From an uncultured Actinomycetota bacterium (GTDB lineage Bacteria; Actinomycetota; Geothermincolia; Geothermincolales; Geothermincolaceae), in assembly GCA_964515075.1 (NCBI GenBank), contig CAZETE010000004.1, positions 3,353 through 67,352 on the forward strand: DNA of 64,000 nt. The letters are read 5' to 3'. Positions within the stretch are counted from its first letter, which is position 1. Each line of letters opens with the position of its first letter. Below, in pieces: positions 2,871 through 13,373 of this stretch. Position numbers and translations under genes: made by a program. Below the pieces are notes generated by a model, which saw only the letters and a list, made by a program, of their open reading frames with translations, made no database searches and was not told the DNA's origin.

Positions 2871-3275
2871 CTAGAGCGGGTCGGGGTTGCGGAAGCTGGG
2901 CTTGTAGGTGACCCTGCGCATCTTGTTGAAGACCACGTTCATGGAGCGGGAGAAGACGTCGGGCTTGAGCTCCTCCACCATCTTGGTGACGAAACGCTGG
3001 TTCTTGTTGAGCGATTCCGCGATGGCGGCGGGGTCCAGCTCGCCCATGAGCTTGGTCATGAACCCGGGGTTGGCGTTGATGGGGGCGGCCAGGGCCTTGG
3101 GGTCCAGTTCGGGGATGACCTTGCCCATGAACTCCCCGCTGTCGTTGACGATGCCGGCGACGATCTTGGGATCCAGCGTGGACAGCATGCCCTTGACCAT
3201 GCCGGCCAGCAGCTTGCCCATCAGGTTGGTGATGGTGCCGGCGATGGAACCCATCATCTCGAACAGTGCGCTCAT
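2871..3275 (-). CDS. small protein with four ~23-aa tandem repeats (LDPxxxAxxxNxNxxFxxKxxxE); function unknown
   Basis: A 134 aa ORF (MSALFEMMGS...) with internal repeats LDPKIVAGIVNDSGEFMGKVIPE / LDPKALAAPINANPGFMTKLMGE / LDPAAIAESLNKNQRFVTKMVEE / LKPDVFSRSMNVVFNKMRRV. Codon usage is typical of the host. It has a GGGAGGT ribosome-binding site and an AT-rich promoter region immediately upstream. Confidence 0.55.
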   Translation of the reverse strand: MSALFEMMGSIAGTITNLMGKLLAGMVKGMLSTLDPKIVAGIVNDSGEFMGKVIPELDPKALAAPINANPGFMTKLMGELDPAAIAESLNKNQRFVTKMVEELKPDVFSRSMNVVFNKMRRVTYKPSFRNPDPL

Positions 3276-3344
3276 CCTCTACCTCCCTTAGTAGATACCA
3301 ATACTGACCATCCAGTCTTTGCAGCTTCTCTTTGCTGCCATTCC

Positions 3345-3400
3345 ATTATAGTACACTCCGTCGGAAATTCCCACCCCAATTTAGCAGGCATTATGCTTCA
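3345..3400 (-). promoter_or_regulatory. AT-rich promoter region (minus strand) with a -10-like TACTATAAT for the repeat-protein gene
   Basis: The minus-strand sequence ...TTGGGGTGGGAATTTCCGACGGAGTGTACTATAATGG... lies about 70 nt upstream of the ATG. Local GC is far below the genome average. A ribosome-binding site GGGAGGT precedes the ATG. Confidence 0.4.
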
Positions 3401-3528
3401 GCTAGTTATATTGACTAGTTAGTACATATAACTTATAGTCATCAGGAGCCGCCTCTCGGGGCCCCGCACCCCCCTTCCCGCTAGGCCCGCCTCCCGGCGC
3501 CCCCGCCGCCGGGCCCCCGGCCGGCTCA

Positions 3529-3558
3529 TTGACATCGTACCGGCCTGCGCCCATAATT
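3529..3558 (+). promoter_or_regulatory. sigma70-like promoter (TTGACA-17nt-CATAAT) upstream of the homocysteine-synthesis genes
   Basis: TTGACA at 3529-3534, a 17 nt spacer, then CATAAT at 3552-3557. Confidence 0.45.
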
Positions 3559-3564
3559 GACTGG

Positions 3565-3842
3565 TCCGGGTCGTTGATAAGTGAATATCCGAGCAAAGGC
3601 TGAGAAGGGGAGGAGTAGGTCCGCCGGTTGCGCTACAGAGAGCCGAGCCGAGGTTGAGAATCGGTGCGCGACAACGGGCCGAAGATGGCCCCGGAGCTTC
3701 CCGCCGAAAGGGCGACCGAGTAGGCGAGGACGGACGCCCCCGTCACCACGGGCTTAGGGTATCGCGCCGTAGGCGCCGCACCTGAACGGGACGGTTCTCC
3801 GGAGGGATCCGCCGGCTGGTGCGCCGCCGGTGGGTTTTTCAT
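3565..3842 (+). ncRNA. ~270 nt 5' leader RNA (candidate riboswitch or attenuator, class unassigned) ending in a terminator-like hairpin
   Basis: No credible ORF lies between the promoter at 3529 and the DUF39 start at 3932. A GC-rich hairpin CCGGC-9nt-GCCGG at about 3812-3830 is followed by TGGGTTTTTCATTT. Promoter, structured leader and terminator preceding a sulfur-amino-acid biosynthesis gene is the classic riboswitch architecture. I could not match the SAM-I/S-box consensus convincingly. Confidence 0.35.
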
Positions 3843-3931
3843 TTAAGAGAAGGGGTGGTGCGGATGCTGTGGATCATGCCCGCGCCCCCGAAAGGTCTTG
3901 ACGGGTCCGGAGGACGCGAGGAGGTGCGCGA

Positions 3932-5119
3932 ATGGCGAAGACGATCGCCGAGATAAACGAGAAGATACGGGCGGGCAGCGTGGTGGTGGTCACCGCCGAG
4001 GAGATCATCGACCTGGTCAAACGCGAAGGCGCCGAGGCCGCGGCGGAGAAGGTGGACGTGGTCACCACCGGCACCTTCGGCCCCATGTGCTCCTCGGGGG
4101 CCTTCATCAACCTGGGCCATTCCAAGCCGCGCATCAAGATCTCCCGGGCCACCCTCAACGGGGTGCCCGCCTACTCCGGCATCGCCGCGGTGGACGTCTA
4201 CATAGGGGCCACCGAGCTGCCCGAGAACGACCCCTTGAACGAGGTCTTCCCGGGCGAGTTCAAGTACGGCGGAGGGCACGTCATCGAGGACCTGGTGGCC
4301 GGGCGCAAGGTCAGGCTGGAGGCCCACTCCTACGGCACCGACTGTTACCCCAACCGCCGCTGGGAGAGGGACCTCACCCTTTCCGAGATGGGCGACGCCT
4401 TCCTCTTCAACCCGCGCAACGGCTACCAGAACTACAACGTGGCGGTGAACCGCTCCGACCGCATCATCTACACCTACATGGGCCTGCTCCGCCCCGAGCT
4501 GGGCAACGCCAACTACTGCTCGGCCGGGCAGCTCAGCCCGCTCCTGAACGACCCCTGCTTCCGCACCATCGGCGTGGGGACGCGCATCTTCCTGGGCGGC
4601 GGCGTGGGCTACGTGGCCTGGAACGGCACCCAGCACAACCCGGAGGTGCCCCGCACCGCCGGGGGCGCGCCGCGCCTGCCCTCGGGGACCCTGTCGGTCC
4701 TGGGCGACCTCAAGGGGATGAGCCCCCGCTGGCTGGTGGGCAACTCCTTCCTGGGCTACGGCGCCACCATGAGCGTGGGCCTGGGCATCCCCATCCCGGT
4801 GCTGGACGCGGAGGTGGCGCGGGCCGCCGCCGTCTCCGACGCGGAGCTGTTCGCCCCGGTGGTGGACTACTCCCTCGACTACCCGCAGGGCACCGGCAAG
4901 CTCCTGGGGGAGGTGAGCTACGCCCAGCTGAAGAGCGGCTCCTTCCGGCTGGAGGGCCGGGAGGTGCTGGCCGCCCCCCTCTCCAGCTACCCGCGGGCCC
5001 GGGAGATCGCCGAGACCTTGAAGGACTGGATAGAGAAGGGCGGGTTCCTGCTGGGCGAGCCGGCGCAGCTGCTGCCCTGCCCCGCCCGGGACGGGACCGC
5101 GCCCGCAGGAGGTGAATGA
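3932..5119 (+). CDS. DUF39 (COG1900) homocysteine-biosynthesis enzyme (L-aspartate-semialdehyde sulfurtransferase, MA1821-like)
   Basis: A 395 aa ORF (MAKTIAEINEKIRAGSVVVVTAEEIIDLVK...) typical of the DUF39 family. It is directly followed by, and overlaps by 4 nt, the gene for its known NIL-ferredoxin partner. Confidence 0.8.
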   Translation: MAKTIAEINEKIRAGSVVVVTAEEIIDLVKREGAEAAAEKVDVVTTGTFGPMCSSGAFINLGHSKPRIKISRATLNGVPAYSGIAAVDVYIGATELPENDPLNEVFPGEFKYGGGHVIEDLVAGRKVRLEAHSYGTDCYPNRRWERDLTLSEMGDAFLFNPRNGYQNYNVAVNRSDRIIYTYMGLLRPELGNANYCSAGQLSPLLNDPCFRTIGVGTRIFLGGGVGYVAWNGTQHNPEVPRTAGGAPRLPSGTLSVLGDLKGMSPRWLVGNSFLGYGATMSVGLGIPIPVLDAEVARAAAVSDAELFAPVVDYSLDYPQGTGKLLGEVSYAQLKSGSFRLEGREVLAAPLSSYPRAREIAETLKDWIEKGGFLLGEPAQLLPCPARDGTAPAGGE

Positions 5120-5526
5120 CCGTGCATCGCAAGGTGGTTCTGCATTTCCCCCACGAGCAGGTGGACAAGCCCATCGTCAGCCGCCTGGTCAAGGACTTCG
5201 ACATGGACTTCAACATCCTCAAGGCCCAGATAACCCCGCGGGAGGAGGGCATCCTGGTGCTGGACCTCATCGGGCCGGAGGAGAACTTCAACCGCAGCAT
5301 CCGCTACCTGGAGGAGCAGCGGGTGGTCATCCAGCCCCTGTCGCAGGACATCCGGCGGAACGATGAGCGCTGCACCCACTGCGGCGCCTGCACGGGCGTC
5401 TGCCCCTCCCGGGCGCTCTTCATCGACAGGAAGAGCATGGAGGTCCGCTTCGACGAGGAGGAGTGCGTGGCCTGCGAGCTGTGCGTGCGCGTCTGCCCGT
5501 CGCGGGCCATGGAGGTCCACTACTGA
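5116..5526 (+). CDS. NIL-domain / 2x[4Fe-4S] ferredoxin partner of the DUF39 enzyme (MA1822-like)
   Basis: A 136 aa ORF with an N-terminal NIL domain and two CxxCxxCxxxCP motifs (CTHCGACTGVCP, CVACELCVRVCP). Confidence 0.8.
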   Translation: MTVHRKVVLHFPHEQVDKPIVSRLVKDFDMDFNILKAQITPREEGILVLDLIGPEENFNRSIRYLEEQRVVIQPLSQDIRRNDERCTHCGACTGVCPSRALFIDRKSMEVRFDEEECVACELCVRVCPSRAMEVHY

Positions 5527-5563
5527 CGGGGACGGCGGCGCCCCGGCCTCCCCGCGCAGCGCC

Positions 5564-7003
5564 TCACAGCTGCTCGAAGGCGAGGGAGAGGCGCCGCAGG
5601 CACTCCTCCCGGCCCAGGATGTAGAGGACGTAGGGGAGGGGCGGGCCGGCGGAGCGCCCGGTCAGCGCGATGCGCAGGGGCATGAAGATGTCGCGGGGCT
5701 CGAGCCCCCTCTCCCTGAAGCCCCCGGTGATCTCGGCCAGCAGGACGCGGGCCTCCTCCAGGGCGGCGACCCGTCCCCCCTCCAGGGCGGCCCTGGCCGC
5801 TTCCATCACCTGCACGGCCCCGCGGCCGGAGAGGGCGGCCGCCATGTCCGGCTCCAGCGGGGGGAAGGCCGTGTAGACCTCCAGGTAGCGGGGGAGCTCG
5901 TTCAGCCGCTCCAGGTTGTCGCGGACGGATATGACCATGTCGGAGAAGAGCGGGTGGGCGGCCGCCGGGCCGGCGAAGGGGCGCGCCAGCTCCACCAGGC
6001 GGGCGGGGTCCGCGCGCCGGATGTGCTGCCCGTTGAACCAGTCCAGCTTGTGGGTGTCGAACACCGAGGGGCGGCGGGAGAGGGTCTCCAGCCGGAACTC
6101 CTTCACCAGCTCGGGCAGGGAGAGCACCTCGCGGCCCTCTCCCTCGGGAGACCAGGAGAGCAGCGCCAGGTGGTTGGCCACCGCCTCGGGCAGGTAGCCG
6201 GCGGAGCGGAACTCCCCCAGCGAGGCGGCCCCGTGGCGCTTGGAGAGCTTGGCGCCGTCGGCGCCCAGCAGCAGGGAGTGGTGGCAGAACGCGGGCACCC
6301 GGTAGCCGAGGGACCGGTAGAGCAGCACGTGGCGGGCGGTGTTGGTGAGATGGTCCTCGCCCCGCACCACGTGGGTGATGCCCATGGCGGCGTCGTCCAC
6401 CACCACCGAGAAGTTGAAGCCGGCCGAGCCGTCGGAGCGGAGGACGACGAAGTCCCCGATGACCTCGGAGGAGAAGGAGACCCTGCCGTGCAGCAGGTCC
6501 ACGAACTCGATGGGGCCGGGGGGGACGCGGAAGCGCAGCGCCGGCCTGCGCCCCTCGGCCTTGAGGCGCTCGCGGTCCTGCGCGGTGAGGGCGCGGCAGG
6601 TGCCGTCGTAGAGGGGCATGCGGCCCTCGGCCCGGGCCCGCTCCTTCCCGGCCTCCAGTTCCTCCGGGGTGCAGTAGCAGAAGTAGACCAGCCCCTTCTC
6701 GGCCAGGCGGCGCGCCTCCCGCAAGTAGAGATCGCGGCGTTCGCTCTGGCGGTAGGGGGCGTGGGGCCCGCCGACGTCCGGGCCCTCGTCCCAGTCCAGG
6801 CCCAGCCAGCGCAGGTCGGAGAGGATGGAGGCCTCGCACCCGGCCGAGGAGCGCCGGGGGTCGGTGTCCTCGATGCGCAGGACCATGGAGCCGCCCATGT
6901 GGCGGGCGTAGAGCCAGTTGAAGAGGGCGGTGCGGGCCGAGCCCAGGTGCAGTTCCCCGGTGGGGGAGGGGGCGAATCTGACGCGTATCTCGTCCATGGT
7001 CAC
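5564..7003 (-). CDS. gltX: glutamate--tRNA ligase
   Basis: A 479 aa ORF (MTMDEIRVRFAPSPTGELHLGSARTALFNWLYARH...) with the class I HIGH region and a full anticodon-binding domain. Confidence 0.9.
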   Translation of the reverse strand: MTMDEIRVRFAPSPTGELHLGSARTALFNWLYARHMGGSMVLRIEDTDPRRSSAGCEASILSDLRWLGLDWDEGPDVGGPHAPYRQSERRDLYLREARRLAEKGLVYFCYCTPEELEAGKERARAEGRMPLYDGTCRALTAQDRERLKAEGRRPALRFRVPPGPIEFVDLLHGRVSFSSEVIGDFVVLRSDGSAGFNFSVVVDDAAMGITHVVRGEDHLTNTARHVLLYRSLGYRVPAFCHHSLLLGADGAKLSKRHGAASLGEFRSAGYLPEAVANHLALLSWSPEGEGREVLSLPELVKEFRLETLSRRPSVFDTHKLDWFNGQHIRRADPARLVELARPFAGPAAAHPLFSDMVISVRDNLERLNELPRYLEVYTAFPPLEPDMAAALSGRGAVQVMEAARAALEGGRVAALEEARVLLAEITGGFRERGLEPRDIFMPLRIALTGRSAGPPLPYVLYILGREECLRRLSLAFEQL

Positions 7004-7162
7004 GCTCGGGTCTCCTCGTCTTTACGCTCCGGGCGGGCGCGGTCCAGGTGCATTGTAGCACACGGCCGGGACATCCCGGAGGGCCGGGCGGGCGCGGGGT
7101 TTTGTCCCGGGTAGCGGCTATACTCGGGGCGTTGAGGCGGCCCGGCGGATGGGAGGTCCCGC

Positions 7163-8536
7163 TTGAAGCCCAGGAGCGTTTTCGTCTGCAGCGAGTGCGG
7201 CGGCTCGGCGGTGAAGTGGCTGGGCCGCTGCCCGGAGTGCGGCGAGTACGGCACCATGCAGGAGGAGCGGGCCGCGCCGCCCCCCGGCTCCCCTTCCGGC
7301 CGGGCCCCCCTGCGCTCCGTCCGGCGCGACCCCCTCCCCCTCTCCTCGCTGGAGGGCGGCGGGGAGGAGCGCCGCTCCACCGGCCTGGCCGAGCTCGACC
7401 GGGTGCTGGGCGGGGGCATGGTGCGGGGCTCGGTGGTGCTCGTGGGGGGCGAGCCGGGCATCGGCAAGTCCACCCTGCTGCTGCAGGCGGCCAGCCGGCT
7501 GGCCGGGGCGGGGCGGCGGGTGCTCCTGGTCAGCGGCGAGGAGTCCTGCGCCCAGGTCCGCATGCGGGCGGAGCGCCTGGACGCCGTCTCGCCCGACCTC
7601 TTCCTCTTCTGCGAGACCGGGCTGCCCGAGGTGGTGGAGGCCGTCGAGGGCATGCTGCCCGAGGTGGTGGTGGTCGACTCCATCCAGACCCTGGCCAGCC
7701 CGGAGGTCGCCTCCCCCCCCGGGGGGGTGAGCCAGCTGCGGGAGTGCGCCCTGCGCCTGCAGGCGCTGGCCAAGGAGCGGGGCGTCACCACCTTCCTGGT
7801 GGGCCACGTCACCAAGGACGGCTCGCTGGCCGGGCCGCGCGTGCTCGAGCACATGGTGGACACGGTCCTCTACTTCGAGGGCGAACGCCACGGCTCCGTG
7901 CGCATCCTGCGCGCCTCCAAGAACCGCTTCGGCTCCGTCTCCGAGGTGGGCGTGTTCGAGATGGGCGACTCCGGCCTGCGGGAGGTGGAGGACCCCTCCC
8001 TCCTCTTCAGCCGCCTGCGCCCGGAAGGGGTCTCGGGCGTCGCCCCGGTCATCGCCATGGAGGGCAGGCGCCCCCTGCTGGTGGAGGTGCAGGCGCTGGT
8101 CACCCCCACCTCCCTGCCGGTGCCCAAGCGGGTGGCCTCCGGACTGGACCAGCGGCGCTTCGCCCTCGACCTGGCGGTGCTGGAGAAGCGGGCCCGCCTG
8201 AGCTTCTTCGACCACGACGTCTTCTGCGGCACCGCCGGCGGGCTGCAGGTGGCGGAGCCCGCGTGCGACCTGGCCATCTGCCTGGCGGTGGCCTCCTCCC
8301 GGCTGGACGCGCCCCTGCCCGCGCACCTCGCCTGCTGCGGCGAGGTCAGCCTGGCCGGGGAGGTGCGCCCGGTCTCCCGCACGGAAGAGCGGGTGCGCGA
8401 GGCCCGGCGGCTCGGCTTCTCCGGGATGCTGGTCCCCGAGGCCGGGGAGGCTCCGGAGGGCGGGCGGGGGTTCAGGCTCGAGCGGGTGGGCGACATCCGC
8501 GCCGCCCTGCGCGCCTGCGGCCTGGGCGCCGATTGA
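7163..8536 (+). CDS. radA: DNA repair protein RadA/Sms
   Basis: A 457 aa ORF with an N-terminal zinc ribbon (CSECGGSAVKWLGRCPECGEY), a RecA-like ATPase with Walker A (GEPGIGKST) and a Lon-protease-like C-terminus. Confidence 0.93.
   Translation: MKPRSVFVCSECGGSAVKWLGRCPECGEYGTMQEERAAPPPGSPSGRAPLRSVRRDPLPLSSLEGGGEERRSTGLAELDRVLGGGMVRGSVVLVGGEPGIGKSTLLLQAASRLAGAGRRVLLVSGEESCAQVRMRAERLDAVSPDLFLFCETGLPEVVEAVEGMLPEVVVVDSIQTLASPEVASPPGGVSQLRECALRLQALAKERGVTTFLVGHVTKDGSLAGPRVLEHMVDTVLYFEGERHGSVRILRASKNRFGSVSEVGVFEMGDSGLREVEDPSLLFSRLRPEGVSGVAPVIAMEGRRPLLVEVQALVTPTSLPVPKRVASGLDQRRFALDLAVLEKRARLSFFDHDVFCGTAGGLQVAEPACDLAICLAVASSRLDAPLPAHLACCGEVSLAGEVRPVSRTEERVREARRLGFSGMLVPEAGEAPEGGRGFRLERVGDIRAALRACGLGAD

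Positions 8537-10895: not shown

Positions 10896-13373
<2,478 letters not shown>

Follow-up and report, generated by a model that had tools for sequence, protein, structure and literature searches.

The transcript leader of a homocysteine synthesis operon from an uncultured Actinomycetota bacterium was analyzed within a 64,000-nucleotide (nt) stretch of contig CAZETE010000004.1, referred to here as the window and numbered from its first base. We interpret this leader as a methionine-specific T-box riboswitch with translational output that would control the downstream HcyBio/NIL-ferredoxin operon, a reading to which we assign a probability of roughly 80%. The assignment draws on a decoding module, a UGGU motif, and a set of alternative helices recognizable in the sequence, and from these we infer tRNA binding and the direction of regulation. 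The regulated operon (3932-5526; all features are on the plus strand unless stated otherwise) consists of the genes for an HcyBio/DUF39 homocysteine biosynthesis enzyme (3932-5119; Pfam PF01837, E = 2e-150) and a NIL-domain 4Fe-4S ferredoxin (5116-5526; PF09383 plus Fer4 families), and the same gene pair lies downstream of the leader in relatives. A preliminary description of this DNA had named both genes correctly and had remarked on the promoter, the long leader, and a GC hairpin with a U-tract in front of them. It favored a divergent or undescribed small-molecule aptamer and mentioned the T-box among the usual options for such operons; the evidence presented below points to the latter.

Decoding module with a methionine specifier

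A default Rfam scan with gathering thresholds returned no match at all in the whole 64-kb window. In E-value mode, the T-box family (RF00230) matched at 3593-3762 with 68.1 bits (E = 1.3e-14), the only Rfam match at E <= 0.001 within the window. The cmscan search that had been suggested in the preliminary description thus came back empty under default settings, because the score lies below the RF00230 gathering cut-off of 93 bits, and it identified the leader as a T-box, with no family of S-adenosylmethionine (SAM) or S-adenosylhomocysteine (SAH) riboswitches, once E-values were used. The match spans model positions 1-219, and its score is low because the stem III and antiterminator segments of the model are skipped as unaligned gaps. 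Sub-threshold RF00230 matches are present in 7/9 of the closest orthologous loci (67-83 bits). Despite scores that all fall short of the cut-off (68.1 bits in the window, 66.8-83.4 bits in the relatives), the E-values of the window and its relatives, 1e-12 to 1e-16, are far beyond chance.

The RF00230 alignment places T-box stem I at 3598-3698, complete with a GA (K-turn) motif, specifier loop, AGAGA bulge, and distal loop. Its landmarks are the GA motif (3602-3603/3604-3605), the two S-turn strands of the specifier loop (AGUA, 3614-3617; GAA, 3681-3683), the codon AUG (3685-3687), and the purine that follows it (G, 3688). The specifier loop reads GAA-G-AUG-G (3681-3688), and its codon specifies methionine (Met). 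Within an alignment of 19 orthologous leaders, the AUG is invariant (19/19), as are the purine after it and the GA columns of stem I, and the base preceding the codon varies between G and C. The distal part of stem I also fits the RF00230 consensus at the sequence level, with ACAGAGAG (3635-3642) supplying the AGAGA bulge and GGUUGAGAA the distal loop, both invariant in 19-20 leaders. This distal platform is the part of a T-box that docks on the tRNA elbow.

Stem I is followed by T-box stem II (3699-3730), which carries GAAA...AGUA S-turn sequences in the RF00230 alignment and is recovered by RNAalifold as columns 109-115 paired with 141-148. The stem IIA/B pseudoknot comes next (3729-3753): IIA (3729-3733 with 3740-3744) was taken from the RF00230 alignment, and IIB is formed by loop bases 3736-3739 with 3750-3753 and covaries at columns 157-168 (UA:10, CG:8). 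An extra hairpin, designated H4 (GGGUAUCGCGCC-GUA-GGCGCCGCACCU, 3757-3783), lies between the pseudoknot and the position of stem III; RNAalifold pairs its columns 175-178 with 200-203 and 182-185 with 193-196, with covariation in both helices. Overall, RNAalifold recovered stem I, stem II, IIB, H4, and a further GC hairpin from the 19 leaders, in which 14 pairs vary on both sides; several pairs of stem I covary (e.g., 56-71, with GC:10 and AU:9). A stem I model built in this analysis (R1) gives 120 bits in the window. The comparison of orthologous upstream regions that had been recommended beforehand therefore shows the leader to be conserved, with covariation, in 19-20 leaders, and the earlier view of a structured cis-regulatory leader of a methionine-pathway operon is borne out.

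Proposed discriminator and sequestration of the ribosome binding site

The 3′ part of the leader is predicted to form a helix that hides the ribosome binding site of the HcyBio gene. The ribosome binding site (GAGGAGG, 3918-3924, with ATG at 3932-3934; 3918-3934 in all) provides the 3′ strand of this sequestrator, and a pyrimidine-rich switching strand, the anti-Shine-Dalgarno CCCGCGCCCCC (3879-3889), pairs with the Shine-Dalgarno region in the folds. Pairing extends from 3879-3889 to 3918-3930; when 3870-3935 was folded, 3881-3889 paired with 3920-3928 and CAU (3875-3877) paired with the start codon AUG (3932-3934), an arrangement also seen in the relatives. In the relatives, the switching strand reads GCCUCCC and lies 3′ of the invariant blocks of the 19-leader alignment, and a GGAGG core is found 6-10 nt before the start codon in 17/19 leaders.

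Most leaders form the sequestrator helix in their minimum-free-energy fold. Its duplex energies range from -9 to -23 kcal/mol, with a mean z of -2.3 relative to shuffled sequences. When pairs were counted in a fixed register, 10/13 sequestrator pairs were changed on both sides, a value reached by 8/500 shuffles, and the paired fraction in this register was the highest among slid registers. The flanks of the two strands also change together: UCCUACCUCC in the switching strand accompanies GGAGGUAGGA beside the Shine-Dalgarno sequence, and GCCUUGCCUCC accompanies GGAGGUAAGGC. No U-run follows this final helix, which indicates a T-box of the translational type. The output is thus likely translational, with both the Shine-Dalgarno sequence and the start codon sequestered. 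The ileS T-boxes of Actinobacteria are established examples of translational T-boxes that use a Shine-Dalgarno sequestrator (PMC7583486, PMC12647780).

Upstream of the switching strand lies a variant of the T-box sequence, AAGGGGUGGUGCGG (3850-3863). It contains GGUGGUG (3854-3860) and, within it, UGGU (3856-3859), a candidate site for the tRNA 3′-ACCA end that corresponds, at the sequence level, to the UGGN with which a T-box bulge begins. In one relative (L002), the Rfam alignment continues through the GC hairpin as stem III and puts the T-box sequence (AAGGAAGGUGGU) after the U-run. The U of UGGU fits the discriminator base A that is usual in bacterial tRNA-Met. A second, near-invariant block, UGUGGAUCAUG, lies at 3868-3878 and reads UAUGGRUCAUG in the relatives; this block and GGUGGUG form invariant columns across the 19-leader alignment. 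The 3′ half of the block, UCAUG, is complementary to the start codon region, which explains its invariance, and the 5′ half, UAUG, can itself pair with UCAUG.

These complementarities suggest how the discriminator could be built. We propose that the GGGG before UGGU, as the 5′ strand of helix A1, acts as a Shine-Dalgarno decoy and that UAUG acts as a start-codon decoy. In the antisequestrator, CCUCC would be the partner of the GGNGG located just 5′ of UGGU, in most cases across a mismatch at the center, and CAUG would be that of UAUG; the 5′ strand of the antisequestrator would thus mimic the ribosome binding site imperfectly and hold UGGU in between. The downstream helices would accordingly be mutually exclusive, with the sequestrator using the 3′ strand of the antisequestrator. 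The apical hairpin of the antisequestrator is 95% paired, and its bases are invariant. A test of whether each decoy resembles its own ribosome binding site more closely than those of other leaders gave a marginal result (permutation p = 0.06).

The surroundings of this discriminator depart from the textbook arrangement. A stem III that abuts A1 within the purine string 5′-RRRxG-stem III-AA-3′ is absent; the spacer between the hairpin and A1 is instead filled with purine-rich, nonconserved sequence. A purine-rich RAAGG precedes A1 in all leaders, and a small local hairpin could be seen by eye in some leaders with long spacers. According to a review, a stem III abutting A1, with its 5′-RRRxG...AA-3′ flanking purines, is an integral and indispensable part of the discriminator (PMC7583486). 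In a related actinobacterial metagenome-assembled genome (MAG), locus L004, only 157 nt (2344-2500) separate a Usp-like gene from HcyBio. Stems I to III are missing there, and a remnant of the 3′ domain is present in which UGGU has become UGAU and UCAUG has become GCAUG; judged from its sequence, this locus, an anecdotal point in favor of the proposed discriminator, resembles a T-box from which the decoding module has been lost.

Under the proposed mechanism, transcription would start near 3564. Stem I, stem II, and the IIA/B pseudoknot would serve as the decoding module, in which AUG (3685-3687) would select tRNA-Met via its CAU anticodon, and UGGU (3856-3859) would pair with the free 3′-ACCA end of uncharged tRNA-Met. 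The switch itself would be a three-segment competition, in which the strand at 3875-3889 (CAUG...CCCGCGCCCCC) has two possible partners. Pairing with the real ribosome binding site (3918-3924 plus AUG 3932-3934) would block translation. The other partner would be the upstream imperfect copy that flanks UGGU, i.e., GGGG (3852-3855) plus the UAUG-like bases at 3868-3871. Under methionine shortage, uncharged tRNA-Met would stabilize the latter pairing, the ribosome binding site would be freed, and homocysteine synthesis would be turned on.

Terminator-like hairpin and competing explanations

The position of stem III is occupied by a GC-rich hairpin (core 3808-3834) with a U-run (3835-3839). The terminator scan reported a stem at 3815-3831 followed by GGGTTTTTCA, and the minimum-free-energy fold lengthens the stem to 3802-3840; the hairpin ends 92 nt 5′ of the ATG at 3932. 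The GC hairpin and U-tract noted earlier at about 3812-3840 are therefore real features of the leader, and they are kept in 19/19 leaders. Among the aligned relatives, 89% of the cells are paired, with covariation, and the first nine bases after the hairpin include 5-8 T in 19/19 leaders, in a genome of 65-75% GC. The sequence pattern of an intrinsic terminator, a GC-rich hairpin plus a U-run, is thus present and conserved throughout the alignment, and the hairpin is among very few with an uninterrupted T5 run in 60 kb. By count alone, terminator-like sites do not exceed chance (1 found versus 0.6 expected in the scanned region), and the window is not enriched for them; it is the comparison with relatives that makes the hairpin, like the promoter, convincing.

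The 5′ strand of the GC hairpin has an alternative upstream partner, consisting of CGG, a bulge of 1-6 nt, and CGGUA (at about 3789-3800 in the window). This alternative is 83% paired, with 5 pairs changed on both sides, and only 0-1 of 500 shuffles reach the observed values; the GC hairpin is more stable than the alternative in every leader. In sequence, the two structures look like an antiterminator/terminator pair, though the bulge lacks UGGN, and the conserved U-run together with the alternative pairing suggests an added pause or attenuation step. A third alternative hairpin in the style of a trp attenuator (b:c, ACCCG/CGGGU) found no support, as it is 72% paired and shows no covariation. 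Only in the window and in L001 does the GC hairpin have a UGGU in its loop (3817-3820); the other 17 leaders do not keep this UGGU, which is probably coincidental.

The idea that this hairpin is a riboswitch terminator of the usual kind did not survive the analysis. The T-box sequence with its UGGU lies downstream of the hairpin, which therefore is not a canonical T-box terminator, and the final helix, which has no U-run, covers the Shine-Dalgarno sequence and start codon. Within a translational T-box, the GC hairpin with its U-run (3802-3840), which takes the place of stem III, probably causes the polymerase to pause, or to terminate in part, before it has transcribed the discriminator. A single-molecule study found that a translational T-box is decided cotranscriptionally, after the antisequestrator has been made and before the Shine-Dalgarno sequence has been made (PMC12647780); kinetic control of this kind would be compatible with a pause at a hairpin plus U-run, or with a leaky terminator, located a short distance upstream.

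If the leader were a T-box that mainly regulates termination at the internal hairpin (3802-3840), the upstream CGG...CGGUA-like segment (at about 3789-3800) would serve as the antiterminator, a tRNA-bound decoding module would tip the balance, and the GGUGGUG/anti-Shine-Dalgarno element would be a secondary translational layer or mere constitutive structure. Such a leader would account for the 5-8 U that follow the hairpin in every leader, within a GC-rich genome, for the scarcity of comparable hairpins with a T5 run, and for the alternative pairing of the 5′ strand, whose changes on both sides are hardly ever matched by shuffles and whose A1-bulge-A2 topology is that of a T-box antiterminator. 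The distance from the hairpin to UGGU varies over 18-307 nt, unexpected for a true stem III, and the canonical metG Met T-boxes L102 and L103 carry no U-run after stem III. However, UGGN is missing from the bulge of this alternative structure, which leaves no visible sensing of tRNA charging at the hairpin step, and the hairpin is thermodynamically much stronger than its alternative in every leader. The pairing with a third partner (b:c) is devoid of covariation, the stem may also be drawn in a longer form, with the U-run as its 3′ strand paired to the purine-rich 5′ flank, and terminator-like sites are not enriched in the genome, where the polymerase may not rely on them. We regard regulation mainly by termination as improbable.

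Ribosome-mediated attenuation by a leader peptide, or protein-dependent attenuation, would involve a small open reading frame (ORF) that starts at the near-invariant AUG/GUG (3869) or at AUG 3864. An AUG (GUG in the window) is indeed invariant inside a conserved block, the Shine-Dalgarno-like AAGGUGGUG precedes it, and in several leaders the short frame stops beside the real Shine-Dalgarno sequence. Its length nevertheless ranges from 4 to >59 codons with no conserved peptide past three residues, the other frame has no start codon in 7/19 leaders, and third-codon positions are as invariant as the others, which indicates that it is the RNA, not a peptide, that is constrained. Attenuation of this kind is very improbable, and leader-peptide attenuation was rejected because the frames are not conserved. 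Least probable of all, and close to negligible, is the possibility preferred in the preliminary description, a new or divergent small-molecule riboswitch that senses SAM, SAH, homocysteine, or sulfide and whose terminator would be the hairpin with its U-run. A long, structured, conserved leader 5′ of a sulfur amino acid operon would suit such a switch, and orthologues in other phyla do carry a SAM-I riboswitch. But no SAM-I, SAM-II, SAM-IV, or SAH family (RF00162, RF00521, RF00634, RF01057) matched in 3280-3960 even at E <= 10, the T-box decoding module aligns in full to the 5′ 170 nt of the leader at E = 1e-14 and has AUG, an invariant Met codon, as its specifier, and UGGU and complementarity to the ribosome binding site account for the other conserved blocks.

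Several observations weigh against a Met T-box with translational output, the reading that we prefer. The window scores 68 bits against a gathering score of 93, and the 3′ third of the RF00230 model is unaligned. The bulge has no 3′-ACC: UGGU is followed by G and variable bases (GCG in the window; GAA, GGC, and GAC in relatives). A1 starts at 3852, which leaves a gap of about 17 nt to the hairpin in the window and of 18-307 nt in relatives. The antisequestrator (A1 plus the apical A2) is 85% compatible across the leaders, with no significant covariation, as its bases are invariant, and the sequestrator duplex of the window itself reaches only z = -1.6, with two registers possible. Finally, no tRNA gene is present in the window, and none for tRNA-Met, with its anticodon and discriminator base, is present in the related loci.

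A bolder reading, which we put forward tentatively and consider possible but unlikely, would make the leaders of this clade a third T-box architecture with two serial checkpoints. A full-length decoding module would lead into an internal intrinsic terminator with its own antiterminator, T-box-like in topology and devoid of UGGN. A variable spacer and a decoy discriminator would come next, the latter with neither the canonical stem III contact nor ACC and with its UGGU flanked by mimics of the Shine-Dalgarno sequence and of the start codon. If this were true, the identity and the charging of the tRNA would be read separately, in one transcriptional and one translational step.

Genomic setting, distribution, and relation to known riboswitches

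The near-consensus promoter reported earlier at 3529-3557 is present: a sigma-70-type promoter with TTGACA (3529-3534), a 17-nt spacer, and CATAAT (3552-3557) matches 11/12 consensus positions and predicts a transcription start near 3564. A promoter scan of 3200-4100 found 3 promoter-like sites versus 0.2 expected from shuffles, and a counterpart (TTGACA/TTGACT-17/18-TATCAT-like) lies 82-98 nt 5′ of a fixed point in stem I in 20/20 orthologous leaders. The stretch of about 370 nt after the promoter, described earlier as ORF free, contains only short mechanical ORFs before the ATG at 3932 (58, 43, and 45 amino acids [aa] on the plus strand of 3558-3931), and the sole candidate upstream ORF varies among relatives in both length and start codon. 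Between the predicted start and stem I lies a conserved 5′ leader element, GTTGATAAGTGAATATCCGA (3573-3592), whose sequence and position are kept in all orthologous leaders; the relatives' version reads ATTGAYAAC..nATAYCC. Its spacing ruled it out as a second promoter. No internal promoter was found consistently in the long hairpin-to-discriminator spacers of the relatives.

Upstream of the T-box promoter, an AT-rich island (3290-3440) contains divergent promoter-like sites at 3411-3439 (plus strand) and 3417-3390 (minus strand), and an extreme C/G tract, CCGCCTCCCGGCGCCCCCGCCGCCGGGCCCCCGGCCGG (3450-3525), separates this island from the promoter. Downstream of the operon, the region between the NIL-ferredoxin gene and a RadA/Sms-like gene (7163-8536) has long ORFs of 583, 513, and 479 aa on both strands (5527-7160). 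A Pfam scan of the 583-aa and 513-aa ORFs gave no match.

In the genome collection, the closest HcyBio relatives belong to uncultured Actinomycetota, namely a MAG (90% identity), Candidatus Geothermincola primus (79%), and Candidatus Solincola (74-76%); Geothermincola belongs to the class Candidatus Geothermincolia. A metagenome scan with the motif of the specifier region retrieved 24 loci. HcyBio lies 3′ of the motif in 17 of these, 13 of which also have the NIL-ferredoxin gene, and several of the loci without HcyBio are contigs that end just after the motif. With the stem I model R1, the element was detected in 7/80 species-representative HcyBio loci, all from the actinobacterial clade and none from other phyla. 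In four of the loci from elsewhere, SAM-I riboswitches (81-97 bits) lie directly 5′ of HcyBio orthologues, namely in L011 (1975-2089), L013 (119-229), L020 (2320-2418), and L021 (2296-2404), which represent Clostridia, Syntrophomonadaceae, and a deltaproteobacterial MAG. With a T-box in the clade studied here and SAM-I upstream of orthologues elsewhere, the HcyBio operon is thus under RNA feedback control in several phyla, with differing sensors, the sensor in this clade being the Met T-box.

Two further findings came from these searches. About 1.9 kb 5′ of the SAM-riboswitch-controlled HcyBio gene of L020, a weak match to the stem I model (566-669; 25 bits, E = 0.002) may be another T-box on a neighboring gene. 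The motif hits L100 (435-457) and L101 (11658-11680) were discarded as T-boxes: the 23-nt motif occurs there by chance inside a protein-coding gene (M.F.TGITGIQNMAPELPVQ...) that is followed by a second large ORF, and these genes may be phage structural genes.

Met-specific transcriptional T-box leaders (RF00230) precede met genes of Lactobacillales and Staphylococcus. Three of the 24 loci retrieved with the specifier-region motif also proved to be canonical Met T-boxes. L098 (2022-2293, minus strand; 123 bits, bulge UGGC) lies 5′ of a gene for a cysK/cystathionine-beta-synthase-like pyridoxal phosphate enzyme in a low-GC organism, and L102 (about 3465-3900) and L103 (minus strand, around 11664-11686) are metG T-boxes with the canonical AGGGUGGUACCGCG and a terminator that likewise fall below the Rfam gathering score. 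The leader in the window shares with these Met T-boxes a stem I with GA motif, specifier loop, AUG, and distal platform, as well as stem II and the IIA/B pseudoknot; the 23-nt motif of the specifier and stem I base, GAANATGGCCCNNGAGCTTCCCG, is identical, and H4 between the pseudoknot and stem III could also be recognized by eye in L102 and L103. The logic would likewise be the same, with uncharged tRNA-Met turning on methionine supply. The two types differ in their 3′ parts. Canonical leaders have AGGGUGGNACCGCG directly after stem III and then a terminator with a U-run. In the clade of the window, every leader instead has its U-run behind the hairpin that takes the place of stem III (there is none after stem III of the metG leaders). 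The T-box sequence of this clade, GGUGGUG, lacks ACC and lies 18-307 nt further on, and the Shine-Dalgarno sequence and start codon are covered by the final helix, after which no U-run is present. The Rfam score of 68 bits, against a gathering score of 93 bits, also sets the window leader apart.

The translational (class II) ileS T-boxes of Mycobacterium tuberculosis, M. smegmatis, and Nocardia come from the same phylum. They resemble the present leader in having an antisequestrator and a sequestrator that exclude each other, with the Shine-Dalgarno sequence masked by the sequestrator, in a UGGN that senses the tRNA 3′ end, and in stem II and the pseudoknot (PMC7583486, PMC12647780). They differ in being Ile specific and located on a tRNA synthetase gene, mostly with a short or "ultrashort" stem I that has no distal platform, and in having a compact stem III directly beside the antisequestrator (PMC7583486). 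In contrast, the leader in the window is Met specific and precedes a biosynthetic operon, and it combines a full-length stem I with H4, a terminator-like hairpin, and a variable spacer. The SAM-I riboswitch (S box, RF00162) occupies the same position 5′ of HcyBio/NIL-ferredoxin orthologues and serves the same purpose, feedback on methionine and SAM supply, but has an unrelated fold and ligand (SAM rather than tRNA-Met) and no match in the window.

By its sequence, the leader would thus belong to a known T-box class in a new variant layout, with a new target operon. Methionine T-boxes on methionine synthesis genes are well known (PMC2494555), and the leader is still a member of a very well-studied class. 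A literature search of incomplete coverage found no paper linking T-boxes to COG1900/DUF39 genes, which is weak evidence of novelty. Since its members score below the Rfam cut-off, standard annotation pipelines will miss this T-box family. For a deep-branching uncultured class of Actinomycetota, relatives of Candidatus Geothermincolia, the finding would mean that the HcyBio/NIL-ferredoxin pathway is controlled by the charging of tRNA-Met and not by SAM. As the same operon is preceded by SAM-I in Firmicutes and by a Met T-box here, it would be a clear case of RNA sensor replacement. The combination of a long stem I with translational output, the noncanonical bulge, and the conserved terminator-like hairpin before the T-box sequence are unusual for T-boxes, and these three features could be used to test how essential the compact stem III discriminator is.

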